IMG/VR virus record: IMGVR_UViG_3300042691_020576
Strand: one strand, 5' to 3'
Origin: a virus
Taxonomy: Duplodnaviria > Heunggongvirae > Uroviricota > Caudoviricetes
Length of the DNA: 64,000 nucleotides
Shown here piece by piece: positions 703 through 61,600 of this stretch. Every line of letters starts with the position of its first letter. Position 1 is the stretch's first letter. The notes under the pieces are model-generated. The model was not told where the DNA came from. It searched no databases and saw nothing but the letters and a program-made list of their open reading frames with translations. The position numbers and the translations under genes were made by a program.

Positions 703-1322
703 ATATCTGTTCCTCCAACAATTTTAGGAGCTTCTTCTACAGTGTTCCCTTCTTTAATCAACTCTATGAATGGTTCATAGCTACGCTGATTGAGATATGT
801 GAGACTGTTTTGCATGTAGCTCAGTTTGTTTGTAGATGTCTTTACAGAATTCTCTTTCTTCTGATTGACATCAAATAGCAATGCATCAATGAGATCTTTG
901 GCTGTATATTCGCCTTCTAGCAAAATCTTGTTGAATTTGATTCTGCATTCATCTTTATTCTGTCTCAAACCTCTGTTGCCTGAGAACTTTTTACCATTAT
1001 GAGTGAATGTGTCTGTACCTGGATAGACTTTCCACCATTCTTCAAACTCTGTAGTGTCAGCTTTCTTCTTGACAATCTTCTTTGGTTCCTTTGTATCAAT
1101 GAACACCAGAAGTTCTCTACCAAGCGTGGTGATTTTGTCTTCTGTTTCTGTAATGAGCCCTTTTCTGATCAAATTCTGATGCATTGCTTTGATCTTCATG
1201 CTTGATTCACACATGGGAGCAATGTCAAACTGCTCGTCTATGAGCTTCAAGAGGAACAATGAATCAAGAGAATATCCTTTCTTAATAAGTTCCTCAAAAT
1301 GGTAAGCTGTTAGTTTTTTCAT
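699..1322 (-). CDS. hypothetical protein (207 aa)
   Basis: Long minus-strand ORF in the tightly packed early operon. No recognisable motif. Confidence 0.5.
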   Translation of the reverse strand: MKKLTAYHFEELIKKGYSLDSLFLLKLIDEQFDIAPMCESSMKIKAMHQNLIRKGLITETEDKITTLGRELLVFIDTKEPKKIVKKKADTTEFEEWWKVYPGTDTFTHNGKKFSGNRGLRQNKDECRIKFNKILLEGEYTAKDLIDALLFDVNQKKENSVKTSTNKLSYMQNSLTYLNQRSYEPFIELIKEGNTVEEAPKIVGGTDI

Positions 1323-1497
1323 GTTCTACTACTGGGGTTACTAGTTCAACTTTTGCTGGCAATCTATGCTCTTCTTCGTTAATCTCTGCCATTATTCTTT
1401 GTTCTTCTTCAGCCTGCTGAGCCTGCAAATATACTACATCCTTAAGATGTTCTCTCTCATAATCCTCGTTATTAATGAAAGGTTTTAGTCTTTTCAT
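1294..1497 (-). CDS. hypothetical small acidic protein (67 aa)
   Basis: Minus-strand ORF with a short overlap to the downstream gene. Glu-rich. Confidence 0.3.
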   Translation of the reverse strand: MKRLKPFINNEDYEREHLKDVVYLQAQQAEEEQRIMAEINEEEHRLPAKVELVTPVVEHEKTNSLPF

Positions 1498-1657
1498 AGT
1501 TAAGGTTTTGTGTCTGGATAATAATCATCATCGTGCCATTCAGTAGTGATAGGAGGTTCATCACTTTTATTAAGAAATGGCGCACGACTAATTTCATAGG
1601 CCATCCATGCCCATAGTGCTACTAGGACAGAAATAAAAATGTAGGGGAACATAAGGG

Positions 1658-2116
1658 TTAGTTTTTAATGCGAAGACCGTATGCCAGATTGAACCATTCA
1701 AATGTCTGCTCAGCCTTAGCTTTATTGAATTTGAATACCTTTTTCAACAGGGGAATGGCGTATGCTTTAAATAGCTCATGTTGCTTTTCAGTCATGGTGT
1801 TATTGTAATACCATTCTTCATCATCCTTAATATCATCTGTTGTCTTACCAATCATATTCAATTGATATTCAACAAGATGATCTTGTATGTTTCTTCTGTT
1901 AATGACAACCTTAGGCTCTTGGAAGAATCTGTTGCCCTGGATTTCAGAAATGAACTCTTTCTTATCCCAAACTTCTACAAATGAAGGAGTTTGTATGAAT
2001 GTAAGCTTCACTACATCATCCTTGATGTAGCTAATGAAACAGAGACTACCCATGTAGTCTCTGAATCTATCTCCTTTACTCAGTTTCATGTTGTTAAGTT
2101 TTTTCGATATTCCCAC
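1658..2116 (-). CDS. hypothetical protein (152 aa)
   Basis: Minus-strand ORF. No recognisable motif. Confidence 0.45.
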   Translation of the reverse strand: MGISKKLNNMKLSKGDRFRDYMGSLCFISYIKDDVVKLTFIQTPSFVEVWDKKEFISEIQGNRFFQEPKVVINRRNIQDHLVEYQLNMIGKTTDDIKDDEEWYYNNTMTEKQHELFKAYAIPLLKKVFKFNKAKAEQTFEWFNLAYGLRIKN

Positions 2117-2304
2117 ACGGAAAAAGATTTACGTTTACCTCTCTTTCTTTTCTCCTCTTTCTTTTTCATCTGATTAAGGATTTCTTGGTTAGCTTCATCT
2201 TTTCTTACAGGAAGTGGATTATAGCTTGGAAAGGTTATGCCTCTTTGTCTAACAAGAGCTAGCTCGTTCTTCACTCTTTCTCTAGGGTGTGCTTTACGTG
2301 CCAT
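2086..2304 (-). CDS. small basic protein (72 aa)
   Basis: Lys/Arg-rich (KKKEEKRKRGKRK). Overlaps the next gene by 31 nt. Confidence 0.35.
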   Translation of the reverse strand: MARKAHPRERVKNELALVRQRGITFPSYNPLPVRKDEANQEILNQMKKKEEKRKRGKRKSFSVWEYRKNLTT

Positions 2305-2308
2305 AAGC

Positions 2309-4267
2309 TTAAAATAAAGAAAGCTGGTTAGGATTTACAACCACCTTACGTTTCTTACCACCAGATTCTATCTTGCTGATGATTTTCTCTGCACGCTCTA
2401 TGTAATAGGCATAATTGATGTTATCCAGAGGATGGTCTTTGCTCAGTTTATTACAAACTGTTGCTAACCATTCACCAGCTTCCACTTGAGAAATATCCGC
2501 AGCACCACTATCACTATCTTCATTCTTAACCTTTAGAAGCTTCTCACCTGTATTTGATACATAATAACGAATTAGCTTATTGTAGATTGTTTTCTCACCA
2601 CTTGCTCTATTAATACCTTCATAATGAAAATCTCTGCTGGCTTTCTGTCTTATGCAGAAGTCAAAGATAGATAGATGAGACTTAATAGTATGGTCAACAG
2701 GTATATTATGAACAAAATATTGTTCGAGAGCCAGAGGTACAATTCTTGCTGATTTGTTCTTATGAAGCTCGAAATCCGTGAGGAAATCGCCTTTCTTCTT
2801 GATTTCTCCATCTGTTTTTATTGCAAGATAGTCATTTACAGTGGAAAATATAATCTTTTGATAATCAGCTCTTTCTAGTTCATACTTTGTAAGGTCACAC
2901 CACCACTTATTGATTTCATGCATTTTGTCAACCAGAGACTTCTTAATTCTGATTGTAACACCATCCGTGTTAGCACTGATTACATGAATACCAGCAAGTT
3001 CATATGCCTCAATAAGCATCATTAGGCTTAATTCCCCTGTAATAGTGGTGAACATAGTGAGCTGTCTGTCATATATCCAGGACTGCATGTCTGAGCTTTT
3101 ACCATAAACAGAGTTTACAGCAAGCTTCAGTGCACCAACAATACCCTTGATGCGCTTGTCTTTCTTAGCTAAAGGCTTGAGTTCCAATCTTCTATTAAAC
3201 ATTTCCTTGTAACCACGGAGGAATTCTTTACCCAAATGGAAAGGATAGCGCTCATTATTGATGATGATGGCTGGATAGTAACTAGACACGTCCCAATCAA
3301 TGATGAGATATTCATCATCAGCTTCAAAGATTTCAGGTTTGTTCTCTGTGTGCAAGCCACCTTTCATGAAAGAATATACATTCCCATAGAAATGCAGTTC
3401 TTCTTTGAAATCATCCTGCATACCAAGCTCAATACCTTTGATGCGTTTGAGGAATTCTTTCAGTTCAGGGGTTTGAAATACTACATAGTTAGCAATGCAA
3501 TGTTTCACCTTGACAGATTTTCTGAAGAATCCCTTCTTTGGGAGCTCTTTATACTCAATCTTCTTCTGCTCACAGTAGAACTTCTTAATCATCTCATCCC
3601 CAATCTTACTATCTGAATAGTTCAAGCAAGGAATTCCAAACTCCTTCTCAATATCCAGTCTAAGTTCGATCTGGTTGTTTTGCTTATACAGAGGATGATC
3701 AGTTTCTCCTGTAGTGACCTTATAGAACTGATACGTGGCGTGCACATCATTCCTACAATAATCCTTGGTGATTTGAATATCCTGAGGTGTCATGTCTACA
3801 GCATCATGATGTATAGGCATTTCCTCAATGTTCTCCAAGTTCATCTCAAACTCTAGTCTTTTCAAGCTCACCATACGATTCTTATTATCGTAGTGATTGA
3901 TCTTGAAGAGATCTAACTGTTTGAGAGTCAAGTCACTTTCTCTATATTCAGGGAACACATCAAAGTTTGCATCATGGATTACATCTTGAGCCTTCTGACT
4001 AATCTTTCCAGTGATTTCCAATCCTGACAAATCATGCCAATAGTCATAATTCCTCAATACCCACTCAATCACTTGAGAGTCAAATCGTAGGTTATTGTAG
4101 CCCACCCAATAACGGTCTTTGAACAATTCTGTAAATTTTACAAACTTGTCCAAATCATTATTGTACCTACTCACCTCAAACTCAAAGTATGTATCTGCTT
4201 CTGGTACATAAGCACCTACAAGAAATAACTCTTTGAGTGTTTCTATATCGTAAATGATTACATTCAT
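2309..4267 (-). CDS. DNA polymerase, family B, with 3'-5' proofreading exonuclease
   Basis: Exo I IIYDIETL; Exo II GYNNLRFD; Exo III YCRNDVHATYQFY; pol motif A DWDVSSYYPAII (Dx2SLYPS-like); motif B KLAVNSVYGK (KxxxNSxYG); motif C SANTDGV (DTD). Confidence 0.9.
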   Translation of the reverse strand: MNVIIYDIETLKELFLVGAYVPEADTYFEFEVSRYNNDLDKFVKFTELFKDRYWVGYNNLRFDSQVIEWVLRNYDYWHDLSGLEITGKISQKAQDVIHDANFDVFPEYRESDLTLKQLDLFKINHYDNKNRMVSLKRLEFEMNLENIEEMPIHHDAVDMTPQDIQITKDYCRNDVHATYQFYKVTTGETDHPLYKQNNQIELRLDIEKEFGIPCLNYSDSKIGDEMIKKFYCEQKKIEYKELPKKGFFRKSVKVKHCIANYVVFQTPELKEFLKRIKGIELGMQDDFKEELHFYGNVYSFMKGGLHTENKPEIFEADDEYLIIDWDVSSYYPAIIINNERYPFHLGKEFLRGYKEMFNRRLELKPLAKKDKRIKGIVGALKLAVNSVYGKSSDMQSWIYDRQLTMFTTITGELSLMMLIEAYELAGIHVISANTDGVTIRIKKSLVDKMHEINKWWCDLTKYELERADYQKIIFSTVNDYLAIKTDGEIKKKGDFLTDFELHKNKSARIVPLALEQYFVHNIPVDHTIKSHLSIFDFCIRQKASRDFHYEGINRASGEKTIYNKLIRYYVSNTGEKLLKVKNEDSDSGAADISQVEAGEWLATVCNKLSKDHPLDNINYAYYIERAEKIISKIESGGKKRKVVVNPNQLSLF

Positions 4268-4464
4268 TTCTTCTCTTTTGGAACTCGTTTAATAAAGTCT
4301 TCTCCTTTGTTGATGAGTTCAATCAACGTAGGCATTTCACTAGACTTTAATACTCCAGGAACATGTTTCTTTGAAAAGTAGTCCTGATACTTTTCTCTTG
4401 GGATGGCATTCCACAATCCTGTATAGTGATTGTAATGGAACACGTAATTGTAGGTCTTTTCCAT
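4264..4464 (-). CDS. hypothetical small protein (66 aa)
   Basis: ATGA overlap with the polymerase start. Confidence 0.4.
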   Translation of the reverse strand: MEKTYNYVFHYNHYTGLWNAIPREKYQDYFSKKHVPGVLKSSEMPTLIELINKGEDFIKRVPKEKK

Positions 4465-4514
4465 GTAATAAGTTTTAAATGCCCCACTCTCATAGAGAGC
4501 AGGGCACTACAAAT

Positions 4515-4823
4515 TTACTTAACTCTGCGAAAACGTACAACATATTTCTTGTACTCATCAGATGGTTGGTAGTACATTTTATTGCCACTACGAACCAATC
4601 TACCTGTTCGCATCTTCGTTTTGAAAATCGAATCAACCAATCTATTGACAGAATCAATGTTTGTATCGTCTGTGTAAACCAATGGTTTAACTTGGCTCCA
4701 AGAGGAGCGATAAACTAATATAGCTGCCATGGTGATGAGGTTTTGGATGTGATTAAAGGTAGATTCTGATGTGATCCTTATGCTTTTCAACTCTGGTGAT
4801 AACTTTTGAAATCTCCAATTCAA
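4515..4823 (-). CDS. hypothetical protein (102 aa)
   Basis: Minus ORF. Overlaps 4753..5040 by about 70 nt; the true start may be the internal Met near 4730. Confidence 0.35.
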   Translation of the reverse strand: MNWRFQKLSPELKSIRITSESTFNHIQNLITMAAILVYRSSWSQVKPLVYTDDTNIDSVNRLVDSIFKTKMRTGRLVRSGNKMYYQPSDEYKKYVVRFRRVK

Positions 4824-9294: not shown

Positions 9295-9636
9295 TTATTC
9301 ATTTACGATTTGAAAATAAATGGTTTCAGGGTATTCCCCAAACACAAAGAGTGTCACAGGACATATCCAGAGGACATGATTAACAATTTCCTCATTGTAT
9401 TCATGTGCTATGTACGTAGCACCAAAGTCATCAATACCTATTCTTGTAATCTTGTTACTCAAAGGTTCCTGATGATCAAGCTCTAATGTGATGTTTGTTC
9501 CATTATTGGAAAGAAAGTCTAACCATGTGTCAGCACCAGCAACCATTTCACAATCTGCTTCTGTGCCACCTGCATGAATGTACTCTGGAAGGTCAGCATA
9601 CCATCTGCCCTCCTTCTTGTAGAAAGGTAATTTCAT
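9295..9636 (-). CDS. hypothetical protein (113 aa)
   Basis: First gene of the leftward block, downstream of the ORF-free region. Confidence 0.45.
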   Translation of the reverse strand: MKLPFYKKEGRWYADLPEYIHAGGTEADCEMVAGADTWLDFLSNNGTNITLELDHQEPLSNKITRIGIDDFGATYIAHEYNEEIVNHVLWICPVTLFVFGEYPETIYFQIVNE

Positions 9637-9803
9637 TTGATTTTTGATTTAATGATGACGTAATAACCTGTGTTTAAAGCACCAGGTTTTGTATTTGGTA
9701 GCCAATGGGCTATTGTGCTCACCGTACTTTCTGATGATCTGTAGGTGAGTATTGTACCAGCTCAAAGCGTTCTTTTGTGTTGGTAACATATTTGTTGTTT
9801 TAG

Positions 9804-9902
9804 TAGTCAGGACAGGATTCGAACCTGTACGTCAAGGTCAATGCATTTTCCAAGACACTTGAGATGAATCATAGCGCGTCTAGCCAGTTCCGCCACCTGA
9901 CT
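9804..9902 (-). tRNA. tRNA-like element, non-canonical (about 99 nt)
   Basis: On the minus strand the 7-bp acceptor stem AGUCAGG/CCUGACU encloses a canonical T-arm ACAGG-UUCGAAU-CCUGU. The D-arm GCG-GAACUGGCUAGA-CGC is also plausible. No canonical anticodon arm could be folded by eye. Between the D-arm and T-arm sits a long extended helix: UCAAG-u-GUC loop GAC-CUUGA. Either a class II/intron-containing or otherwise atypical tRNA, or a tRNA-like terminus of a larger RNA. Confidence 0.4.
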
Positions 9903-11090
9903 GTTTATTTAGCACCCTCTTGTCTTACAGAATCAGCCATCAAATTCATGACGTTGCATTTCATTCTGTAAGAGTAGGGTCACGTAGTTAATTACCTGTA
10001 CTTTGGGATACGACTTTGAACTTATCCGTTTTAACTACTTGCTGAGAACTTCTCACAGTAAACAGAGGCTTATCTCATACATCCTCACCTGTGGGTTATA
10101 TTACTATAACCTTCTAATTAACCGTTGGTAGATTTCAACGTGTATCTTGATAAATTTTTCATCAGATTAAAAAATAACTACTCCACCCATCATTTCTGAC
10201 TAGGGTAAGTAGAAGCACTCATTCGTGTTGTCAGGATAATGCCTAAGTAGTTTTAACCTGCTCTGTTATATTCCTTGCTCAAGGGAACAACACGTGTGGA
10301 TTACTCCGTTAATTTCCAGATTCACCCAAAGTTGCGAACTTTGCTAAGGCTCTTGGACATCAATTAACACCCTGTCAATTCAGGGTAACCTTCTTTGTTT
10401 AAAGTCGTATCAATGTTTAACGACTGACTGTTTAATGTGATTCACAGACAACATAGAAGATAACAACTACTGCCTTCTAAGTAGGGTAGTAAGCGTTGCT
10501 CATGTTGATTCATGATTAAGTTACCTCGGGTAACCGCTTGCCACATCGACTCAAACCACTCACATCTTAGAACTGTGAGATAACTCTCCTTACTCTGACA
10601 TGGTTAAGATTCATCCTGAACTATTTAGGATTTACAGCCGTTGATAACTGCTCAAGAGTATTGTTTGTAGTCAATCAGTAGTTGTTAAAGAACTTAAAAA
10701 AGCGTGGTTGGATTTATTATTAGGCTTTAACCACGTACAATTATTTCTAATTGGTAGCCATTCCACGCTTAAAAATGTAGTTGGTGGTAGGGGGATTCTC
10801 CCTACTTTTTAGGCAAAGACTAAATCATGGCTTGCAAGGTAGTTTTGCTTTTACACAACCCCACCGAGCCACACCAACTACAAAGAACTTAACAGGGCGC
10901 AATAATAGCAGGAATTGTATCCATCATCACTATCATCCTTTCCCTGTTTTTTATCTTAAAGAACTTATCTTATATATCTATGGGCTTTTGTGTGGGCTAT
11001 TCACTTGGTTTGCGTGTTTCCCAGAAACCCCAGTTGAAATTGTATTTATGGGCATCGCCCAACGCAATAAACACATACACCCATAGATAT
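9903..11090. ncRNA. ORF-free, hairpin-dense segment; candidate large structured ncRNA(s)
   Basis: About 1.2 kb with no ORF over 60 aa on the minus strand and only two weak plus ORFs. Many perfect local hairpins: CAAAGTT-gcg-AACTTTG around 10326; ACCCTG-tcaatt-CAGGGT around 10364; TTACC-tcg-GGTAA around 10525; CGTGGTT...AACCACG around 10703; AAGCGTGG...CCACGCTT around 10699-10773. Flanked by the tRNA-like element and the tmRNA. Confidence 0.3.
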
Positions 11091-11294
11091 TTAAGATTCT
11101 ACATAATCCATCATCTCTTTCATTTTCAATATCAACAGTTCCATTTCGTTCCTGTTGAGATAGAGTCTTGGACTTGGAGAATCATTCATTTCTTTTGCTT
11201 CAATAACAAGTCCATTAAATCCTTCTGTAGGATAGATTGAAACATTTTGATCTTCTGTTGCTATTTCAACTTTATGCCAAATTTTGTTTGTCAT
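11091..11294 (-). CDS. hypothetical small protein (67 aa)
   Basis: Minus ORF between the structured region and the tmRNA. Confidence 0.3.
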   Translation of the reverse strand: MTNKIWHKVEIATEDQNVSIYPTEGFNGLVIEAKEMNDSPSPRLYLNRNEMELLILKMKEMMDYVES

Positions 11295-11374
11295 ATCTTT
11301 TGATTAATGATTTAAAATTACCCCACCAGTATAGAAATACAGTGGGGTTTGTTACCAATCTACTAACAACTAAG

Positions 11375-11774
11375 TGGACCCGAAGGGAGTCGAACCCTTG
11401 TCCAAACAAATAGTTTGTACATACAACGTCTCACATGCTTAGTACTGCATTGCTGCTGCACCGTAAACACTCACTTATATCCTAAGAGTGCGGTAAGGAT
11501 TTTGGAGTCACTGGTTTGTGACTGCTCCACCACCTAGTTTTGAGAAAACCAGGAAAACAGTTTGTTCAGTTTATGTTGCCAGGTATGAACTACCCCGTAG
11601 GACTTAGGCAGCTACTGCTTCAGTCTGGAAGATAGAAGCCAGGATAGCTTCACCTTCTGCTACACGCTGAGAACGAGTCTTAGCATTTGTTTTTCGATAC
11701 AGTATTAAGAGACAGTATCATCTCTCTGCATGTGTACATACCCACTCCTTTGCTGTCAAAACCAATACGGGCCC
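11375..11774 (-). ncRNA. ssrA: tmRNA (transfer-messenger RNA, SsrA-like)
   Basis: Minus-strand 5' end GGGCCCG-UAUUGGUUUUGACAGC parallels E. coli GGGGCUG-AUUCUGGAUUCGACGGG. The 3' end has a T-arm AAGGG-UUCGACU-CCCUU followed by CGGGUCC-A. The acceptor pairs GGGCCCG/CGGGUCC with G3:U70, the alanine identity element. Internal tag-like ORF ...EGEAILASIFQTEAVAA followed by UAA. Length 400 nt. Confidence 0.75.
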
Positions 11775-11849
11775 ATATGCTTTTTGACAAAGATAATAAA
11801 AACAGCCCTATATTTCAAGGGCTGTTTTCTTCCTCATCATAACCCAAAT

Positions 11850-12212
11850 CTACATATGTTCTTTTACCAAAGTAGCAAGTTCTCTCACCTTGTCAAATGA
11901 GAAAGTTTGACAACCAACCTTCACCACATTTTCACTAGTGATGATTTTTGCTTCGTAATTATCTGTGAGTTGCATCTGAACCACTTTTGTCTGAACCATC
12001 AGTTTCAGAAATCTTTCAAAAGTGACAGTTTTGTAAGAAGTTGTGCTTCTTGATCCAAAGATTTCAGGAACTGCTAAGTTGAGAACACAAGTTGGATATT
12101 GTTCATATCCTTCTTCTAAGTAAGTGTTACAAAATTTAATTCCTTGAGCTTTTGCCAGTGCGACAATTGTTTCCCACTGATACTTTTCTGTAATTACAAA
12201 TGAGTATTCCAT
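11850..12212 (-). CDS. hypothetical protein, member of the VGCQK paralog family
   Basis: C-terminal NYEAKIITSENVVKVGCQTFSFDKVRELATLV matches the motif shared with 13408.., 14371.., 14757.. and 15155... Confidence 0.55.
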   Translation of the reverse strand: MEYSFVITEKYQWETIVALAKAQGIKFCNTYLEEGYEQYPTCVLNLAVPEIFGSRSTTSYKTVTFERFLKLMVQTKVVQMQLTDNYEAKIITSENVVKVGCQTFSFDKVRELATLVKEHM

Positions 12213-50078: not shown

Positions 50079-52694
50079 ATGGCTTCATTTACTGACATTA
50101 TCCCCCAATTTAACCCGTACATCCAGCAGCTTCCTGTGGAGGCTATGGTGTCTGTGGGCATGGAAAAGCAAAGGCGCTATGATGAAGGTCTTCAAAAGAT
50201 TCAAGGTCAAATTGACAGAATTGCTGGTCTTGACATCATTCAGCCTGAGCAGCGAAAGTATCTGCAGTCCAAACTGGATGAGCTTGGTAATAACCTCAAA
50301 ACTGTAGCTGCTGGGGACTTCTCAAACTTCCAATTGGTTAATTCTGTTGGGGACATGGCTAATCAAATTGGAAAAGATTCACGTATTCTGAATGCGGTTT
50401 CATCAACCAAGGCTTATAGAAAAGCTCTGCAAGACAAGGAAACCTACACAAAGGAGGGCAAGTCTTCAGCATCAAACGACTGGGACTTTGCTCAACAGGC
50501 AAATAGCTGGTTGAATGGTGACGTTGATGCTTCATTCAGTGGAACCTACAATCCATATACCAACTACAGAAAGAATGCCCTTGAGGTGATCAAGGCTCTT
50601 ACCAAGAACAAGACTATCACAGAAGACGCTTTTGATTTTGACAAGAATGGTAGAATGATCATCAAGGATGCTATTGTTCGTGAGGAGTTATCTGGTATTT
50701 CCCCTGAGCAAATCCAAGAAGCTCTGATGGCAGGTCTGACTCCTAACGATTGGAAGCAGATTGAGATTGATGGTAGATACAACTATTCAAATGTTCCACC
50801 ATCAGACTTTGTGAAAAGCATAGAGTCTACGTACAAAAATAACGTTGATGCTTTCAATAAGCAACGCACTATTCTTGAGAATGCCAAGAGCTCTACATCA
50901 TCTGCTGTAGAGAAAGCTGCTTTGGATAACAAAATCAAAGCTATTGACAAGGTGTTAGGCAAAATCAATGGTGAGTACGGAAGTATTTCCAAGATGTTTG
51001 CAAGTGGTAACATTGAAGCTGCAAAGGCTCAATTGTTCACAAACAACTTCATGAACACTTTCTCTAACGCATTCTCATTTACAGAAACAACACAGGAATA
51101 TAAATCAAATCCTTTGGCTCAAGCTGAGCAGTGGAGACAAAATAAAGATCAAGAATGGAAAAAGATCATGCTTGATTACAATTTAGGTTTAGCAAATCTC
51201 CAAGTTAGAAAAGAAGAACTGGCTGAAAAGAGAGAAGCTAATCGTATAGCAAGACTTGGTGTTGAAGGATATGGACCAATAGCTGGTCCTGTTGATGCTA
51301 ACACGCTTCCTAAAGTTGCTCTTGATACTGTAGTTGGCCAGACCAATTCGTATCTGCAGGGTGTACAGAAAATGGATAGTGATTTTGCAGCTAGTCAGGG
51401 AAAAGACCAAGCTTGGCTGAATCAACAGAAAGAAGCTTACTTGAAATCTCCTAATGGAGTGGATCCTGTTGTTAAACAACACTTTGACAATACACAAGGT
51501 GCACGAAGATTAGCTGAAGAGAACCAAGTGATGGTTACTCAAATTGCTAGCGAGGCTGATAGAAGATTTGGTACAATTGACAAGTATATTCCTAAGACTG
51601 CTCCAAACTTGACATATAGAGATGGAAAAGGAAATATATACACATACACTCCAACTGAGCTTGTTAACTTCAATTCAAAACTGAAGAACTATAAGCCTGA
51701 AGTGTATAAACCATCTCCTGATAGACCTGGTGCCCCATCACTTTCAACCACCTACGATGATGAGAAGGCTAAAAAGGAACTGAGTCCTAAAGAGTATCTG
51801 TTGTATGAAATATCAAAAGCTGGTACTAAGAACACAGGTGCAAACAAAGTGATTTGGGAAAATCTGAAGAACTATGACAAGAATGTAAATGCTGTGTACG
51901 GAAAAGTGATTGCTGAAAAGAACAACTTCATTGGTGAAGAAGTGAAACGAAGATTGCTTGCTGCTCAAGGTGTTTCTTACAGTATTCCTACAGGAACCAA
52001 AGAACAGAAAGAAAGTCTTGCTGGTATATTTTCTTCAATAGCAGACATGGCTGATAAACAAGGAGGAATTGCTTTATCCCCAGGACTAGACAAGGATGTT
52101 CTTAGAAAACTTGCTGAGAGTGGAGATGTTGAAGCAAATATCACTGTGATAGAGGGTACAGAATTTGCACCTACTATGTACCAAGTTACAGCAAGAGGTA
52201 AAGCTGGCACCACCACTTTTAACCTCACTCCTGAACAAAAGAGACTTGCGTTCCAAGATAGATTTGAACCTTCTCCTGCAGTGAGAGCTTTCAGACCTTA
52301 TCAAGCGATGATGCAAAAGTATAGCAGTCAAGATCCTACCACTGGTACAACAAGCAACTTCTTATCAACCAATCCTACAAAAGGTCCAATCACTTTCCAA
52401 AACTCATCATTAAACTCCACTGATTTTCCAGGTATAAAATCTTATGGAGTTACAGGTGCAGTGATTTCAAACGATGGTGGTAAGACTTATTCTGTAAGGT
52501 TTAATCTATACGATCCTATTACAAGAACATTCCACAATGATATTCCTTATTTCAGAATGCTTAGTGAGGAAGAGGTAGTTCCTGTAATGTCTCAAATCAC
52601 AGATGCTGCTGTGTATGAGCTGTTGAATGACGGTAAAAAAGCTACCAAAGCACAATTAGAATTATTGCAAAGAGCTTCTAAAAAACCATTATAA
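50079..52694 (+). CDS. hypothetical large virion protein (871 aa)
   Basis: Plus ORF. Its stop overlaps the start of the giant ORF (TAATG). Confidence 0.5.
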   Translation: MASFTDIIPQFNPYIQQLPVEAMVSVGMEKQRRYDEGLQKIQGQIDRIAGLDIIQPEQRKYLQSKLDELGNNLKTVAAGDFSNFQLVNSVGDMANQIGKDSRILNAVSSTKAYRKALQDKETYTKEGKSSASNDWDFAQQANSWLNGDVDASFSGTYNPYTNYRKNALEVIKALTKNKTITEDAFDFDKNGRMIIKDAIVREELSGISPEQIQEALMAGLTPNDWKQIEIDGRYNYSNVPPSDFVKSIESTYKNNVDAFNKQRTILENAKSSTSSAVEKAALDNKIKAIDKVLGKINGEYGSISKMFASGNIEAAKAQLFTNNFMNTFSNAFSFTETTQEYKSNPLAQAEQWRQNKDQEWKKIMLDYNLGLANLQVRKEELAEKREANRIARLGVEGYGPIAGPVDANTLPKVALDTVVGQTNSYLQGVQKMDSDFAASQGKDQAWLNQQKEAYLKSPNGVDPVVKQHFDNTQGARRLAEENQVMVTQIASEADRRFGTIDKYIPKTAPNLTYRDGKGNIYTYTPTELVNFNSKLKNYKPEVYKPSPDRPGAPSLSTTYDDEKAKKELSPKEYLLYEISKAGTKNTGANKVIWENLKNYDKNVNAVYGKVIAEKNNFIGEEVKRRLLAAQGVSYSIPTGTKEQKESLAGIFSSIADMADKQGGIALSPGLDKDVLRKLAESGDVEANITVIEGTEFAPTMYQVTARGKAGTTTFNLTPEQKRLAFQDRFEPSPAVRAFRPYQAMMQKYSSQDPTTGTTSNFLSTNPTKGPITFQNSSLNSTDFPGIKSYGVTGAVISNDGGKTYSVRFNLYDPITRTFHNDIPYFRMLSEEEVVPVMSQITDAAVYELLNDGKKATKAQLELLQRASKKPL

Positions 52695-55600
52695 TGGCAG
52701 AAAATCCGCAAACTCCCCTTCTTGATAGAGCTAGTTTAGAAGAGCAATTCACTGGTTATACGCCTCCCGCTGCTCCAGATCCTCTACCCAACATTCCTTT
52801 CAGAGGACTTAACAATCCTATGCCTGGTGGTGTTGCAGGTGATGGAGAATCTGTATCTGCTCTTCAAGCACTTGATGCTTCTGTAAGAAAACCTACAGGT
52901 AAAATGAGGGGTGGTTCCATCATGCGTCCTCTTAGTGAAATGAGTAATCCTAGATATGATTCTTTTGTACCTGGTGATTACAATAACGAAGATGCGTATG
53001 GTCAAGGTCAAGGATGGACTTCAAAAATGGTTAATGGTGTTGGTAAGGGACTCGCTCTTACGGGCACTACTTTCTTGCAGGGTACAGTGGGTTTGGTGAA
53101 CGGTGTAGGTAATTGGATTGCCACTGGTAATTTCAGTTCTTTCTATGATAATCCATTGAATAGAGCTCTGGATGATTTCAATAAAAAGTTGGATGATGAA
53201 CTTCTTCCCAACTACTATACAGATGCTGAAAGCACTGCTGCTTGGTATTCTCCTAAGAACCTCTTCACTGCTAACTTCCTCTGGAATGGTATTGTGAAGA
53301 ACTTAGGTTTTGCTGCTGGTGCTGCATTATCTGGAGGCGTATATGCTTCAGGTATCAAAGCGTTAAGTTCACTCCCTGGTATTGCTAGACTTGTATCACT
53401 TGGTAAGCAAGCTGAAGTGATTGCTGCTACAGAAGCCTCTTTACTGTCTGCTAATAAGGTTGCTGATACATACGGCAAAATCAAATCTCTTTCTGACAGA
53501 TTCCTTTCTTCTTACAAACTTCTCAATCCTGCTCAAAGAGCTGTTGTTGCTGGTTTGGCTACAACAGGTGAAGCTGGATTTGAAGCTTTGCAACATTTGA
53601 ATGAAGAGAGAACCAAGTTGATTGATGAATATATGGCTACCAATAATGGACTCTATCCTACTGGTGCAGCTATGGATGAAATCAACAGAAAGGCTGAACA
53701 GATTGGTGATTCATCCTTCTTAGCTAACGTTGCATTGTTGACAGCAACCAACTATATTCAGTTTCCTAAAATCTTAGGTTCTTCTTTCAAAGCAGAGAAG
53801 GGAATGATTAACTCTCTGCAGAGTGAAACAAAAGAGATTGTTCAAGAAGCTGGTAAGTTCATTGCAAAGCCTGCCGCTGGTGGTAAGATATTGGGAACCC
53901 TCAACAAGATTAGACCGTACACATTCTCTGTATCTGAAGGATTTGAAGAAGGTGCACAGTATGCTATTGGTGTAGGTACCAAAGACTACTTTAACAAGAA
54001 GAATAACAACGAAGCTACAAGCTTCCTTGATAGCCTATCAGAAGGATTCATCAACACATTCACTACCGATGAGGGTATGGAGAATGTGTTAATCGGTAGT
54101 CTGTCTGGTTCTATTATGCAGGCTAGAGGAAGATACAGAGAGCAACGAGAGCGCACTAAGAACACGGCTGAAGCTATTGAGAAGCTGAACAATTATAAAC
54201 TGTCTGATTTCACCAAGGCTACAATTGATTCTGTCAATCGTGGAACTGTTCTTCAACAGGAGAGAGAAGCTCTTTTGAAGAGAGGTGATGTGCTGAACAG
54301 TAAAGACAAGGAAGCAGATTATGTAATCAACTATCTGTCTCCACGTATCAAGTATGGTAGATTTGATCTTGTACAGGCTGACATCAATGACTACAGAGCA
54401 TTGGCTAGTACAGATGAAGGCTTTGCTCAACTTGTAGCTGAAGGTAAAGCTCTTGCTACAGATACAAGAGAAGCTTTCCTTGCACGTGTTGAGAACTTAC
54501 AACAGACTGCAAACAATGTGAAATCATTGTATCAGTCTATCAACTTACGTTATGCTGGTGCAGTGGATGAGAAAGGTAATCCTGCCTATTCACCTGCTGT
54601 AATTGACCAGATGGTATATGCTGCTTCTAAGGTGGCTGATTATGATGTTCGTATTCCTAAACTGAGTCCTAAACTGATTGCTGCTGGTATTAATGTTGAT
54701 CAGGTGGTAAAAGATGTTGTTGAGGGCAAGGTTGAAAGTTTCAACGATGCTGTTAATACCATCAAAGGAATGAAAGACATCACTGTTGATCAACAGGAAG
54801 ATCTTGGTCAAGCTCTGGAAGATGTTGCTGAAATGAGCATTCGTAGAGACAAGTTCCTGAACGAGTATAACGAGATGAAGCAATCTCCTGACAAGTTCAA
54901 GGAAGTCACTCCTGAAGAAGCTCAAGGCCCTGTACCTGCAGTGAAGGAAACTATCAAGGTAAAGGTTCAGAACAGAGAAAAAGAGATTGAGATTGGTACA
55001 GAATATTATATTGGTAAGGGTGTAGACTATGACAAGGATGGATTGGAAGTTCCTATCGAAGTGTCTATGCTCACTGTTCTTGGTGAGAACGCTGATGGTA
55101 CTCTGAGAATCAGAGATAACAAAGGTGTTGAAAGAAATATCTCTAAGGAGAAACTTGAGGATTACAAACTCTTCAAGGCTTCAGACTTGCGTAGTAACAA
55201 GACTGCTAACTATTTCTACAGACACAGAAATGAAGTGTTTGAATACAACTTTGGTAGTGGAAAGAGAACAGGTAGACTTGAATATGATAAGGGTAAGTTG
55301 TTCTTTGTATATAAAAATGACAAGGGTAAGATTGTAAGAAAACTAGTTGATAATCGTCATTTTACTCCTCAAGGAGAATACACAGAACCTCGTATCAGAA
55401 AGGTTGGTGAAATTGAGAATGCAGAACAGAAAACTGCTAGAGAAGAGTTTACATCTGCAGAAGAAATCAAAAGACAAGAGGCAACTCTTGCAAAGAATAA
55501 AGACGCACGTCTTGAAATTATTACAGAGCTCCAGAGAGAATCGTCTGAACGTCTTGATCAAGTGAATAAAAAGCTTGAAAGCAAGAAGAAAGAACTGGAT

Positions 55601-58600
55601 AGTATTCAAAAGGATCTGGATAAGATAGGTGATGAAGTGAGAGTGTCTGAACCTCGTACAAAAAGAGAGAAGGCACTTGAAGCTAAGTATCCTGAAATGA
55701 GCCGTCAGAAAGCTAAGTTTGGTAGAGTGTTCTCAACCACAAGCAAGGCTTTGACAAAACTCTCTCGCATGAGAGAAGCTGTACAGGATGAGATTGCTCA
55801 ACTTGAAGCTGAAAAGAATGAGCTTGAGTTCAACCTTTTATACTTCCAAGACTTTGGACAGAACCTTGATGAGCTTCCAGAAAACTCTGGTGAATTCCTG
55901 AAAGAACTCAAAGACCAAGTTAAGTGGTTGGAGATGTTGGTGAAGGAAACTGGAGATAACATCAACGTACTGGCTAAGCTGAGCAAGACTATTGAACAAG
56001 CTATCAAAGATTTTGCTGACCTGTTGGAAAGCTCTTTGAGCAAGTTTGATGCTGATTATCCTCAGTACATCAAGGATAAGCTGGCTGAAATCAAGGATGG
56101 TACATTTACCATCAAGAATTTTGCTGACCTGAAAGATTATCTGGCAGACTACGCTATGTTGGAAGATCTTCAAAAAGAGATCAGTGTAAACGAGAACAAG
56201 CTGCAAGATGCTGAAGATCAGATAAAGAAGTTGTATCAACAGCTTGATGAACTGGGCAACCAACATAATGCCAAGAAGCAAATTCTTGACAGGTTCCAGT
56301 CTATTGCTGATTCATATCAAGCAAGAAAAGCTGAAGAGGATGCAATCTCTAACAATGAGCAATTAATCAAAGAAGCATTGGGCACTGCTGATACAAGCGT
56401 GCAAACTGCTGAGTTTGATAAAGAATACGAACCTGCAGCTAAGAAAGCTGATGATATTTTACCAAGAGCCACAATTGGTGTGAACAGAGGTAAAGCTCAT
56501 CAGGTGAGAGCTAACAACTTTGGTTTCAATCTGAACAAGTTTGAGAACAGGGATAGGATCCGTGGTGTGTATGTTACATCCAAGAATGAAGATCAAATCG
56601 TTCCAGGATTAACTGACATGCTGAGAATGGATGAAGCAGGTGTAATCAATGAGGACATCAATAAGGATGAGATCATCGCTATGGTGATGGTTGAAGAGGG
56701 TGATGATGGTAAGATCAGAGTGGTTGGTGAAGATGGTGTACCTCTGCCTGATGGTGCAAATCCTCTGGACTTTGCTGTATTCCAGGTGTTCCCTGATGCT
56801 GATTTGAAATGGGGTGCTGAGTTTAACAACGAGAGCATGTTCCGTAAGGACACTCCTCAAGAAGTTAGAGACTCTATCACTGAACAATACAAGGCATGGA
56901 GAAAGTCTGTCCTTGAGAATCCTAGCTTGGATGAAAGACATGAAATCGAAGCGTCGTTTGGTAGAATAGAAAATGTTACAGATGAAACTGGTAAGATTGA
57001 CTATAACACCAGAACATCTGTTGTGGATTCAAATCTTGTAACTGCTGATGATCTTGAGGCATCTCAAGTGATCAATATTCCAAAACTCCCTTCAGGAGAT
57101 GGAAAACTTGCTGTTGAAAGCAAGGGTACAGTATCATTCAGAGTACCTGTAGGTACAGTGTTGTTGGAAACTGCTAATGGTCTGGTTAAACTGCAGAACA
57201 GAAATCTTAGTGAGAAAGAAGCTGAGACAGTGTACAACGCTATTCTGCAAATAGCCAAGAACATGCTCAACCCTGAGATTGGTATAAAGGATCCAAGATC
57301 AGAGCGTCTGTTGAGCTGGTTGAGATCTATTGTGTATTGGGGTATTCCTAAAGACCAAAGTGAGAATAGAAAACCTAGTGCTTACAACAGTGTCTTCTTT
57401 GAGAAAGATGAAGAGACTGGTAAACTGATGTTGTTCATTTCTGGTAAGGGAATGAAGTTCAGATTTACACCAACATCTCTTGAAGAAAACAAAGACATTA
57501 TTGTAAACCTGTTGTCAAATCTGTACAACAACATCAACTCACACAAGTCTAAGTTGCTGAACGAGCCTTACGAAGAGATTCTTTCTATCTCTGAGACTGG
57601 CGAGGTTGAGGGTAGAATGTGGCCAAACTATCAGACTTATCTATTGTCAAACACAACTCCTGATGGTAAGAAAAGAAGCGGTGAAGAACTTCCTCTGTCC
57701 ACTACAGCCAAGCCTGTAGAAGATCCAAATGCTGTGAACAGAACAGCAATCTATTTCTACACTACAGACACAGCTGATGACTTTGTTGTTCCTGTAGTTG
57801 AAAAGAAAAGAACTGTTGTTCCTAAAACTCTTGCTCCTAAAGCTGCTGCACCTGCTGCAAAACCTGCTCCTAAGGCAACAGTTGTTCCAAAAACATATAA
57901 GCTAGACAATAAAACTCGTAACGTATATGTTTCTCCTGAGGGAAACAAGATCATCTTTGTTGCGAGCCCAAATACAAATGATAGCAACTTCTCAACTACA
58001 ATCAAGATTATCAAAGGTGGTGATCTGGATGCTGTAGTTGCTAAGATCAAAGCTGCAGGTATGGATCCTGCTACCGTGTTAAAGAAAAGAATTCTTCAAG
58101 AAATTAAACCACTTCTTCCAAAAGATGAGGATGAGTTTATTATTCCTGAAGATGAAGAAGAAGCACCATCTGTTGCTGAAGAGCAAGCTGAAGATGATGA
58201 AAGCTTTGTTATACTCGAAGAGGATGAAACTGAAGAAGTTATTCCTGAGGATGAAGAAAGTATCATCTTAGATGATGTTGAGAAAACCACTGGTAAGCCT
58301 GTAAGTCAGTCTATCCTGAATGCCATCAATAAGAAGATTGCTGATGATGAAGATGAGCCTCTGCGTGCAGTGCTTAAGCAAGAGTTGGAAAGCTTTGTTC
58401 CTGAAAACTGGAATGAGGTGGAAGCTTGGTTGAACAAGAATTTCCCTAACATTCCTGTATATCGTGTCAAGAACATCATTCAAGCTACCAATGGTAAGCA
58501 AGCTTGGGGTATGTTCAAGGATGGCGCTATTTACATCTATGAGAATGCAGAGGTGGGCACTGCCTACCATGAAGTGTTCCATGCTGTGTGGAGAATGTTC

Positions 58601-61600
58601 TCTACTCCTGAGGAACAACAATCTGTGTTGAAGGAAATGAGAGCTAGAAAGGGCAAATTCTTTGACAGAAGTAGCCTGAAAGATGTTAGCTACTCTGAAG
58701 CTACAGACACACAGCTTGAAGAAAAGCTGGCTGAAGAATTCAGAGACTATGTACAGTTCAAGAAGATTCCTGCAAAACCTGCAAGTGGTAGACCATTTGT
58801 ATTGAAGTTGTTTGCTGATTTAGTGACAGCCATCAAGAAGTTGTTCATGGAACCACAATCAGACTCTAAGGTTGAGGACATGTTCAAGAAAATCAACCAG
58901 GGTGGTTACAAAGCAATCATTCCTTATCAGAGCAACTTGGCTTTTGCTAATCAAGGTGTTATTGATATTGCTAGTGCATTTGCTGATGAGAACACTGCAT
59001 TGAGTCTTGCTGGTATCAATGATAGAGAAAGAAACGAGATCATTCAACACATGACCTACCTCACTCTTGCAAAGATGATCAAGACTGACAAGAGTCTGTT
59101 TGAGGTGGAGAAACAAAATAAGTCAGAGTTGTATGCATCACTTAAGGACGATGTTCTTCAAACAATAGCTAAGAAGATTCGTGTTGCTGAACAGCTTGTA
59201 AAGGATGGATCTTTCACTCAGAAAGAAGCTAATCCTGTAATAGCCACTACTATCCAGTTGATGCAAAGTGTTGAAGATCAATGGGATGTAATTTCTGCAA
59301 GACATCAAGAATATCTCAAGAGCTATCAGATTGAGTTTGATGAGAACGATCAGTTAACTTTACGTGATGAGAACAATAGTGGTAGAGGTGATTATCAAGA
59401 TGCTACCAAGATTGATAACTTCAAGAAAGCTCACAGCGCTATCAAACTGTTGCTAGCAACTATCCCTCAAGTGGATGCTAGTGGTAAAAGAGTTCCATCT
59501 TCTATTGGTGGTTCACAGTTATTGCCTTTGAGCAGAACATACATCACCCTTATGAACAGTCTACATGATGCTTCATCTGTAGAGGAAATGCTTGAGGGAT
59601 TGCGTCAGATTGCTATCAATGATGTAAACTACAGAACTCTGTACAAGAGAATCACCAAGAGAGCTTATAATGAAGCTGGTGTTGATATTTCTACAATTGA
59701 TACAGAACATGGTTTGCAACTGTTGAGTGCGTTCTGGAACACATTTAGAAAGCAGAGTCCTGATGTAAGGAACGTGTTTATTCTTGAGAATGGTGAGGTT
59801 GTAGTGGGTGAAGCAAATCTGTCTACAGCTGCACAAAACCTTAGAAGTCAATTCATTAACTCCATCATATTCAAATCAAAGTCAGGAGATGGCTACTTTA
59901 CATATGATGAGAAAGAGAAAGTGTACAAAGGTGATCCTGCAAAACTGCGTGGTGTTCAACTAGACAAGCCTGAACAGATCGTTGCTTTCCTGAACAAGAT
60001 GGGAATCTCTTTCACTATGAAGGAGGTGAAAAGTCTCACTCCTAGTCAGTACAACAAATTCAGAAGTGCTGCTAGAGGGATCAGAGAAAGTATTGCCAAA
60101 GCTGAAAAGATTGCTACATTCTCAGGAAAGTCTCTTGGAATGAGTGGTCGTTTGCTTGAGATTGCTTTGATAAAAGCTGCTGCAACAAACCCTGAATTCA
60201 GTAGCACATACTTCAACGTTTCTGGTGACCGTACACAGTCCTACATTGGTACAAACGCTGCAAGTGATTTGTATGACTTCTTGTCCAAGCTTACAAAGTT
60301 TGATAAGAACAGTTTGGGTGGTACATCTTACAGCTATCTGCTCACTGATTCTTTTGCAAAGAATTCCAATCTACTGAACAGAATGTTCACAACTGCTGGC
60401 ACACGCAAGCAGGGTAGTGAGGATCTGTTTAAGATAGGCTATGTAAGTGGTACAGTTAATGAAACAAAAGGTAAACGTAAAGAGTCATCTAAGCTCACAT
60501 TCAAAGAACGTCTGATTCAGGAATTGAATCTGAACTTATCAGGTTGGTATTTGAACCTGGTTCCTGGTGATGCATCTATTGAATGGATGATCAATATGGG
60601 CAACCCTATCTCTTTGGAATCTGCTAACAGAGGTATGGCTGAACTCAACTCTATCTTCAAGGGATATTTCTTGTCTGAGCTTGAACTGGCTAGAGAAAAT
60701 CGTCCTGTAGCAAAAGGTAGAAAGGCAAATGAAATGCGCTTCTTCTTAGGCATCCTTGGTGATAAACTCCATTCACAGATAATGAGTGATAAGAGATCTC
60801 CTGAGGAAGTGTACAAAACCTATGAGAAAGACATCAATCGTAGTCTTGAGAAGTTCATTGATGAACAAGTGACTTCTTTCAAAACTACACTGTCTCGCTA
60901 TGGTATTTTGAACCTTAGTGAAACAGGATATACATTTGACAGTGTAAACATTCCTCAAGATCTCAGTGAGAGTCAAGTGAATAGCTATCTGTTTGCCTCT
61001 ACAGCAAACTTCATGATTGCTAACATTGAAATGCATAAGCTTCTGTATTCTGATCCATATCAGTATTCAGATGAACTGAAGCGTATCAAAAACTTCAACT
61101 CTCCACGTCAGGCAATTATCAATAACTCTCCAAAGATGAACACTGCGTTCAACAAAGTTTGGAACAAGGGTTATGAGCGTAACGATATTGGTTATACTAA
61201 TTTCACACAAGATTACTTCCGCACTACAACACTTGCTGATGTTGATGGTGTGATTGATCTTCCTGGTTATGAAGACTTTAAGGAAACTGATGGTAGTGGT
61301 ATCATCACCATGAATGCTTACCGTCAGTTTAGAATCAGAGCTAGTCAATGGAATAGTGATGAAGAACGTCAGTATAGATATGACATTGCTTTTGAAAAGA
61401 AAGACAAGGGCCTCAAGCTTTCTCAAGAGGAAACTAAGTTGTTGAAAGCTGGTAACCCTGGCATCAAGAGTACATACACTCCTTTGAAGCCAATTGTGTC
61501 TGGTAGTAAACTGGCTCAAGATGGTTCTGCTAGCAGCTTCAATAATATCGTATTGGATAAGTTTGCCCTTTATCCATTGTCATATCGCATCATGAAAGAA

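Follow-up and report, generated by a model that had tools for sequence, protein, structure and literature searches.

Results

Organization of the ORF-free locus

We analyzed a 64,000-nt stretch of a Caudoviricetes genome (IMG/VR record IMGVR_UViG_3300042691_020576; the whole stretch is called the window hereafter) and, in particular, positions 9804-11090, which lie between a 67-aa and a 46-aa open reading frame (ORF) of the minus strand. This stretch, treated below as a minus-strand RNA cluster and taken as far as position 11100, carries a 99-nt tRNA-like element at its low-coordinate end, a conserved structured RNA immediately upstream of it, which we name M-long, and a string of hairpin domains further upstream (Table 1). 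The original prediction, made from the sequence, had been of one large structured noncoding RNA of 1.3 kb, either a known or a new one. The part of it that stands is a conserved structured RNA beside the tRNA-like element, matching the option of a new RNA; the size does not, since the family-level structure spans ~520 nt (9903-10424, including the hairpins H and H2 described below). That is, the region is best described by the alternative of a multi-RNA locus, i.e., a cluster of RNA modules as opposed to one demonstrated 1.3-kb RNA. The perfect acceptor stem, D-arm and T-arm, the missing anticodon arm and the transfer-messenger RNA (tmRNA) gene on the other flank, all noted previously, were confirmed.

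The source of the window is a crAss-like phage, whose large terminase has its closest counterparts in Leptolyngbya phage Lbo-JY46 (41%), Cellulophaga phages phi17:2 and phi4:1 (30%) and gut crAss-like phages, and its proteins match portal, major head and virion structural PHROG families. Genes run on the minus strand over 1-19.8 kb and on the plus strand afterwards, and the sole switch in cumulative GC skew (~20 kb) falls at this flip, with no inflection at 9.8-11.1 kb; the GC content of the region (0.37-0.38) is not below that of the neighboring sequence. The lack of a credible ORF held up: the longest one in 9790-11100 has 101 aa, a TTG start and plus-strand orientation, and its coding is not conserved in the close relative L001 (IMGVR_UViG_3300047551_001636), and reading through TAG, TGA or TAA over the region, one stop at a time, opened no long frame. 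An uninterrupted ORF of >3,773 codons at 52682-64000(+) shows that the phage uses the standard genetic code, and ORFs of the standard code are found throughout; hence, a protein-coding gene hidden by an alternative code was rejected.

The reported density of hairpins was also substantiated. The minus-strand fold of 9903-10430 has z = -3.8 (0 of 100 shuffles as good) and that of 10431-11100 has z = -6.9 on both strands, and the region holds perfect inverted repeats of 11-12 nt and one further inverted repeat of 27 nt. The repeated GGTAACC boxes, on the other hand, do not exceed chance (two in the region; five in the window vs. 3.0 expected, a count that 19 of 100 shuffles reach). In simple scans of the region, promoter-like sites were at or below chance and terminator-like sites were enriched but uninformative. 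No match to GOLLD, ROOL, HEARO, group I or II introns or RNase P, the known families suggested before, was found with Rfam at E <= 10 over 9600-11900, at E <= 0.1 in seven related loci, or at E <= 1 in positions 1200-4700 of Cellulophaga phage phi14:2. Besides tRNA and tmRNA, no Rfam family of any kind matched 9600-11900 at E <= 10. The 3.5-kb region around the cluster has no DNA similarity to GenBank phages.

M-long is a conserved, phage-specific structured RNA family

The comparison with L001 revealed mosaic conservation, with short stretches of the window recurring in many unrelated contigs. One of these, the 18-mer AACTACGTGACCCTACTC, was found in 84 IMG/VR contigs, with a single copy in each, and in only four of 185,579 bacterial and archaeal genomes, three of which are metagenome-assembled genomes. 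Loci numbered L205 onward came from an unspecific scan with TAAGTTCTTTNNNNNCTAC and were left out; L347 is the one useful relative added by a metagenome scan, L331 being the same contig as L186. Aligning 39 compact copies gave a consensus whose 5' half reads AUUUACAUAAAGAUA-(P0 GNRA hairpin)-AU-(P1 GUGUUGU)-(P2 UUCC-CUUGAGAAA-GGAA)-(variable hairpin)-(P1' ACAACAC)-AAAUGAG-UUCUCA-GCAA, followed by the 3' half, (P4 GUAGUUAA)-(variable hairpin)-(UUAACUAC)-GUGA-(P5 CCCUACUCUUAU)-(variable hairpin)-(AUAAGAAAGAGGG)-UGCUAAA. The core thus comprises five helices (P0, P1, P2, P4 and P5), a pseudoknot joining the P2 loop to the strand that follows P1', and invariant single-stranded stretches, within a typical length of ~215-290 nt (~405 nt in the window).

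Covariation, which the original prediction had named among the checks to make in related genomes, supports this structure well. RNAalifold recovered P0 and P1 with many double changes and, when the full structure including the pseudoknot was scored over the 39 sequences, 94.5% of the cells paired and 22 of 45 pairs (120 cells) were changed on both sides, a number of double changes reached by 0 of 500 shuffles; controls with slid strands paired in 35-48%. It should be mentioned that P4 and P5 are near-invariant because the sequences were gathered via an exact match there. The pseudoknot UGAGAA/UUCUCA is itself compensated, i.e., UGAAAA/UUUUCA in L145, UGAUAA/UUAUCA in L019 and UGAGCA/UGCUCA in L347, and G-U being the commonest pair at several positions fixes the sense strand. 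Neither the helix order nor the Rfam searches fit a group I intron.

A further hairpin, H (loop UAAACAUUGAAU), precedes M-long by 6-254 nt in 69 of 87 copies, and its stem covaries (AGGU/ACCU, GUGC/GCAC, AACC/GGUU, GGG/CCC). We considered H as a Bacteroidetes -7 promoter (TAnnTTTG) and rejected this, since its TAnn covaries with the 5' strand; a hairpin promoter of the virion RNA polymerase is unlikely too, given that the window has only one hairpin-forming copy. Some phages carry short M forms (P1, P2 and a local hairpin with UUCUCA) between tandem tRNA-like elements, starting 3-4 nt past one and ending 2-4 nt ahead of the next. M-long directly abuts the 5' end of a tRNA-like element in the window, L001, L041 and L198. 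A tmRNA on the same strand within 0.3-1.6 kb was found at seven of 85 fetched M-long loci vs. three of 117 other loci, and a general link between M-long and tmRNA was rejected on the low former count.

The window carries a single copy, recovered by the family profiles (nhmmer) as a 5' domain at 10307-10217 (E = 7.5e-10) and a 3' domain at 10050-9905 (E = 1.4e-22), with the family order H, P0, P1, P2, P1', pseudoknot strand, P4, P5 and UGCUAAA preserved throughout. It ends ...GAGGGUGCUAAAUAAAC, one base ahead of the 5' end of the tRNA-like element. An extra segment of ~166 nt lies between the two domains; the compact relatives L347 and L186 lack it, and L157, L123, L125, L171 and L126 share it at 76-84% identity (~73% for L154). 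Owing to this segment, the strand that usually pairs with the P2 loop is in two pieces, UGCUUC (in the GAGUGCUUC match, 10212-10220) and UUCUCA (in the match spanning 10031-10049).

tRNA-Leu-derived mimics that lack an anticodon arm

The tRNA-like element is a member of a second family, defined here by the strict pattern CANGTTCGANTCNTGNNCTGACTA, which is present in at least 120 IMG/VR contigs and at least 162 copies, with up to six per locus among the matches listed; the matching 5' strand AGUCAG(G/A) was found in 144 of the 162 listed copies, 54-361 nt upstream (all but four within 191 nt). A relaxed search gave at least 220 distinct copies with a median length of 103 nt, among which 146 have exactly AGUCAGG/CCUGACU and 200 have A73. 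The 5' part, GGUGGCGGAAUUGGUAGACGC, is a tRNA-Leu D-arm, whose consensus we take to match the U8-to-C25 segment of E. coli tRNA-Leu, and the T-arm is canonical. The middle, in contrast, varies from ~10 to 130 nt without a conserved anticodon loop, the arm being absent altogether in the shortest members. ARAGORN missed most copies or assigned inconsistent, implausible anticodons; in related loci, members scored 31-48 bits with the Rfam tRNA model vs. 50-73 bits for genuine tRNAs, and the true tRNA-Leu genes found at these loci differ from the family in having a normal anticodon arm and another acceptor stem. Compensatory changes were seen in 11 of the 12 acceptor and T-stem pairs, a count unaffected by the pairing requirement used in gathering the copies, which does inflate the percentage of paired positions.

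The flanks of the 220 copies are also constrained, with U(-1) in 78%, A(-2) in 71%, A(-4) in 69% and a C after A73 in 97%. Bacterial RNase P prefers U(-1) and A(-4) in the leader, and E. coli leucyl-tRNA synthetase (LeuRS) identity relies on A73 and the D/T tertiary core, not on the anticodon. The near-invariant acceptor stem would in addition imply a sequence-specific reader. Close relatives differ in copy number at this exact site, from none in L347 and L186 (where the junction reads GCUAAAC followed by AAAACAAC) to one in the window and two (173 and 135 nt) in L001. A blastn search of GenBank phages with the family consensus found no copy.

In the window, 9804-9902(-) is one copy of this mimic family, i.e., the tRNA-Leu handle is kept and the anticodon arm is swapped for a hypervariable insert. 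It scores 36.1 bits against the Rfam tRNA model (RF00005), above the gathering score of 29, and has the 7-bp acceptor stem, a D-arm with G18G19 and a T-arm with a UUCRANY-type loop, but no 5-bp anticodon stem with a 7-nt loop, U33 and anticodon. The Rfam alignment places a 36-nt stretch at the position of the model's 11-nt anticodon hairpin, with only three flanking pairs, one of them mismatched, and a 46-nt irregular hairpin takes the place of the anticodon and variable arms. The base after A73 (position 9803) is C, and the element agrees with the family in all its defining features. ARAGORN called only the tmRNA in the region, and neither the tmRNA nor the Y-RNA model of Rfam matched 9804-9902(-).

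Several observations concern the inserts and spacers of the family. A second T-arm-like hairpin (UUCGAAU-type loop) lies inside the variable cores of L027, L041, L025, L050, L077, L113, L120 and L030, so that T-loop modules are reused within this "cargo", and one is also found in the M-long P5 hairpin of L041, L130 and L146. The spacer between tandem tRNA-like elements is conserved across unrelated contigs (L001 5620-5699 and L005 893-970; GCAGUUUUUAGAAU...UUUCUGCGGAUACUAAAUUAAAAACUA, closing stem CGCAG/CUGCG), and the gap separating the short M form from the following tRNA-like element holds another conserved module of ~100 nt, CUAUUAGUGAACUUCGGUACCCAUAC...GGGAGUAGAA... (L026 2100-2200 and L064 460-558).

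Neither M-long nor the tRNA-like family is catalogued in Rfam 15, and we found no prior description of them in the literature. A survey of candidate viral RNAs, which only sometimes overlapped ARAGORN tRNA calls (PMC10690425), could include the latter family.

A homolog in Cellulophaga phage phi14:2

A blastn search of GenBank phages with a typical M-long returned phi14:2 (L330) only. The phi14:2 copy lies at 3093-3367(+) (family profiles E = 2.5e-19 and 2.3e-29), together with H (2911-2940) and H2, in an ORF-free stretch; the RefSeq version of this genome has every small ORF removed between g004 (end 2904) and g006 (start 4602). ARAGORN called a tmRNA at 4031-4502, ~660 nt downstream of M-long, which scores 46.0 bits with Rfam, just below the gathering score of 47, and is not shown in the annotation table. 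Drobysheva et al. (10.1101/2020.03.07.982082) reported that long intergenic regions of phi14:2 are transcribed rightward, early, persistently and above most genes, staying abundant while other early transcripts fall, and named the abundant early long noncoding RNAs by the g004-g005 and g005-g006 junctions. M-long would lie in the first junction, since it begins 190 nt after g004 and, if it is the stable product, the abundant RNA would be expected to end in ...GGGUGCUAA. A second stretch that RefSeq leaves free of ORFs (1279-1983) holds a T-arm-like hairpin GAAGGUUCGAAUCCUUC (~1818-1843) and then a near-H motif TAAACATTTA at 1869.

Lineage-specific hairpin domains upstream of M-long

The remainder of the cluster, 10431-11100, consists of successive hairpin domains that are closed by stems and restricted to this lineage of phages. 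Domain 4 is 93.7% identical in L001, with one compensatory and three G-U-preserving changes that fit the minus strand only, and in L347 its stems are kept and its interior is partly replaced; the stem of domain 2 is identical in both relatives and its interior is entirely different. The long hairpin at 10967-11097 is ~91% conserved in L001. We place the RNA on the minus strand, where G-U pairs are maintained despite the differences from L001 and where the fold is 13 kcal/mol more stable. Neither L001 nor L347 contains domains 1 or 3, which are flanked by 8-9-nt direct repeats and resemble small insertion elements; domain 3 looks like a minus-strand intrinsic terminator. The motif TAAAGAACTTA occurs three times on the plus strand of the window (10687-10696, 10882-10891 and 10958-10967), antisense to M-long, and in tandem in phi14:2 (~3540-3585) on the M-long sense strand, an opposite orientation that suggests a DNA-level site.

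Table 1. Features of the RNA cluster and its flanks (all coordinates refer to the window).
Feature	Position	Strand	Description
DUF6717 protein	9295-9636	-	Pfam PF20475, E = 1.5e-28; first sizeable gene downstream of the RNA cluster
46-aa ORF	9649-9789	-	Starts 14 nt past the tRNA-like element
tRNA-like element	9804-9902	-	99 nt; acceptor AGUCAGG/CCUGACU, A73; D-arm GCG-GAACUGGCUAGA-CGC; T-arm ACAGG-UUCGAAU-CCUGU
M-long core	9903-10307	-	Profile match to both domains; all helices located
P5	9966-9983 with 9903-9930	-	
P4	5' strand within 10031-10049, pairs with 9984-9991	-	
Extra segment in M-long	10051-10216	-	~166 nt; between P1' and P4 and between the 5' and 3' profile domains
P2 hairpin	10272-10286	-	
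P1	10287-10293 with 10225-10231	-	
P0	10298-10307	-	GGA-GUAA-UCC
Hairpin H2	10369-10386	-	ACCCUG-AAUUGA-CAGGGU; same relative position in phi14:2, L157 and L202
Hairpin H	10404-10424	-	GUCGU-UAAACAUUGAU-ACGAC, then UUUAAAC; sole hairpin-forming copy in the window
Domain 4	10461-10687	-	12-bp perfect closing stem UAACAACUACUG/CAGUAGUUGUUA (repeat I12); 203-nt branched interior
Domain 3	10696-10770	-	Terminator-like hairpin AAGCGUGG...CCACGC, then six U; UUUUUAAG direct repeat on flanks
Domain 2	10776-10882	-	11-bp perfect stem UGUAGUUGGUG/CACCAACUACA (repeat I18); 85-nt interior
Domain 1	10891-10948	-	Hairpin AACAGGG...CCCUGUU; AAGUUCUUU direct repeats on flanks
Long hairpin	10967-11097	-	27-nt arms, 85% complementary (repeat I1); 77-nt interior; overlaps the stop codon of the 67-aa ORF
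67-aa ORF	11091-11294	-	Bounds the ORF-free stretch upstream; DNA ~66-68% identical in L066, L032 and L059 along the full ORF
tmRNA gene	11372-11774	-	Tag AKTRSQRVAEGEAILASIFQTEAVAA; ARAGORN and Rfam RF00023, 78.5 bits; same tag in L001

Apart from the DUF6717 protein, nine other neighboring proteins had no Pfam match. The tag of the window tmRNA is unusually long, and its gene encodes no CCA. The ORF at 52682-64000(+) leaves the end of the window and far exceeds the virion RNA polymerase of phi14:2 (2,180 residues).

Discussion

We favor, with a probability of about 0.6, the hypothesis that the region is a cluster of minus-strand stable-RNA genes, co-oriented with the tmRNA gene and the small early genes, whose early transcript is processed and whose M-long product acts in trans. 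By analogy to phi14:2, the region would be transcribed early as a noncoding precursor and then cut into discrete stable RNAs by the tRNA-processing enzymes of the host. RNase P would cleave at the 5' end of the tRNA-like element and thereby, in this phage, also generate the M-long 3' end one nucleotide upstream; after trimming, the tRNA-like element would receive a CCA end and perhaps be charged with leucine, since it retains elements recognized by E. coli LeuRS, but it would be unable to decode. The cleavage, CCA addition and leucylation are predictions drawn from the flanks of the 220 copies (U-1, A-4 and C74) and from these LeuRS elements. M-long, for its part, may be a folded, trans-acting RNA with a host or phage factor as its binding partner.

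Several points weigh against this hypothesis. Transcription in this phage is presumed from the phi14:2 data, its processing is a prediction, and even in phi14:2 the equation of M-long with an abundant RNA species is our inference, since the paper gives the names of the junctions and no coordinates. Only ~11 of 85 M-long copies have a tRNA-like element within 450 nt downstream; hence, 3'-end formation assisted by a tRNA is not a general rule. The base at -1 of the window element is C and not U, and the specific reader that the near-invariant acceptor sequence asks for is left unexplained by RNase P. The window P2 loop, UGAGCA, pairs at five of six positions with either UGCUUC or UUCUCA, vs. six of six in the compact L347 (UGAGCA/UGCUCA). 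A target in trans is pure conjecture, as no conserved protein partner was found next to the M-long loci. Finally, the case for an RNA-level function is weaker for 10431-11100, a part that is shared with close relatives only, where it rests on few substitutions, and that has equal z-scores on both strands.

Alternatively, M-long, H and H2 might form a cis-acting leader (a riboswitch, an antiterminator or an RNA that modifies RNA polymerase) controlling the downstream early operon. Indeed, M-long is always co-oriented with the downstream genes, often with an ORF start within tens of nt of its 3' end and with the most frequent neighboring protein cluster at a median offset of +22 nt, and the window copy heads a block of small genes and has a terminator-like hairpin upstream. 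However, the downstream element varies (unrelated ORFs, tRNA-like elements, tmRNA), no conserved expression platform (i.e., a terminator/anti-terminator pair) was found at the M-long 3' end, and the persistence of the phi14:2 intergenic transcripts as other early ones fall fits better with a stable product, so that we consider such a leader unlikely. A slightly lower probability goes to mobile repeats, selfish or neutral (tRNA-derived and SINE- or MITE-like), which would build up in a permissive noncoding region as the tRNA-like elements and hairpin domains and be of no use to the phage. The zero, one or two copies at the identical site in close relatives and up to six per locus, the conserved ends around a hypervariable interior, and the absence of the repeat-flanked domains 1 and 3 from relatives are what mobility would produce; yet conservation extends well beyond terminal inverted repeats to the full tRNA elbow (D-loop GG and T-loop UUCGAAU), A73, C74 and the RNase P-type leader, a pattern that, together with the compensatory stem changes, speaks for selection on the RNA. 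Moreover, the family-wide signal of target-site duplication is weak (longest shared flank 4.00 nt vs. 3.82 +/- 0.07 in permutations), and no transposase or reverse transcriptase is associated.

A DNA-level role of 10431-11100, for instance as an origin of replication or an array of protein-binding sites that includes iteron-like TAAAGAACTTA copies and cruciform-forming palindromes, appears improbable. The three plus-strand copies, the opposite orientation of the tandem copies in phi14:2 relative to M-long and the equally good folding of both strands by z-score would agree with it, but the region has neither a skew inflection nor lowered GC, and both the stability difference and the L001 substitutions point to the minus-strand RNA; the origin proposed among the earlier alternatives is thus unsupported by GC skew and survives only as a weak option for this part. 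Less probable still is a ribozyme activity of M-long, or of its short form, by self-cleavage or by processing that would mature the neighboring tRNA-like elements, similar to the HDV-like theta ribozymes of gut phages, which abut phage tRNAs (PMC10879173). Such a role would suit the tight fit of the short forms between tRNA-like elements and the pseudoknotted core with its invariant single-stranded stretches, but inspection of the consensus showed that neither a P2 3' strand nor J4/2 follows the last hairpin and that the P3/L3 position is occupied by a variable hairpin, in contrast to the nested double pseudoknot of HDV with its order P1-P2-P3-P1'-P4-J4/2 (catalytic C)-P2'; in addition, no Rfam ribozyme family matched, and most M-long copies have no adjacent tRNA-like element. 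Only one of these alternatives is firmly rejected, namely a tRNA active in decoding, be it the intron-containing or the suppressor form suggested before; such a suppressor would read UGA via UCA. The element does pass the Rfam gathering score and its AUUCAUC contains UCA, but it lacks a 5-bp anticodon stem, the family has no conserved anticodon loop in its variable middle, ARAGORN gave no consistent anticodons, and the code is standard with no in-frame stops.

More tentatively, the stable-RNA hypothesis may be extended to a natural "tRNA scaffold" system of environmental crAss-like and other large phages, in which a near-invariant tRNA-Leu handle carries an interchangeable, hypervariable RNA cargo at the anticodon-arm position and the cassettes are gained and lost, alongside an M-long that is produced within the first minutes of infection and acts on a host factor. 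If so, the handle would secure processing, stability and perhaps aminoacylation of the cargo.

It is important to note that the abundant early noncoding transcripts of phi14:2 have already been published; the new part is the two RNA families. Few known viruses are as abundant as the crAss-like phages, whose early program is poorly understood. Our results tie a region of abundant early transcription in phi14:2 to a covarying fold present in at least 84 phage contigs, making the question testable in a cultured phage, and expose a large family of tRNA mimics with an invariant acceptor stem and a freely varying core. Since Rfam lacks both families, current annotations wrongly present their members as spurious small ORFs or odd tRNAs.

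Comparison with known systems

The closest system is phi14:2, another crAss-like phage, which shares H, H2, M-long and a nearby tmRNA, on the strand reported to be transcribed. It differs in module order, with the tmRNA downstream of M-long as opposed to upstream in the window, and it has neither the ~166-nt extra segment nor an AGUCAGG-type tRNA-like element after M-long; further, the phi14:2 paper reported transcript abundance and timing, whereas the structure and the family are described here. GOLLD and ROOL are likewise structured phage noncoding RNAs near tRNA genes with variable peripheral hairpins, but M-long is smaller, its helices and conserved strands are unrelated, and no Rfam model matched at the threshold given above. 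The theta (minimal HDV-like) ribozymes are also compact pseudoknotted RNAs abutting phage tRNA-type genes (PMC10879173), but the topology of M-long is not HDV-like.

The tRNA-like family resembles bacterial type II tRNA-Leu in A73, the canonical T-arm and the 7/5 acceptor/T stacking, and departs from it in the missing anticodon arm, the first pair (A1-U72 vs. G1-C72), the hypervariable middle and an acceptor that is near-invariant across phages, unlike that of the genuine tRNA-Leu genes of the same loci. With the tRNA-like domains of tmRNA and of the bacterial Y RNA YrlA it shares an acceptor/T-arm/D-loop elbow kept while decoding is dropped, and a place in the stable-RNA neighborhoods of phages and bacteria; however, the ends of YrlA form a Ro-binding stem and not an acceptor stem, and no Ro or SmpB-type partner is implied for the mimics. 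Lastly, a tRNA-like fold directly 3' of a long noncoding RNA, where one RNase P cut would make both ends, recalls MALAT1/mascRNA and tRNA punctuation, although these are eukaryotic or organellar, whereas the arrangement described here is optional among M-long copies and its cleavage is putative.

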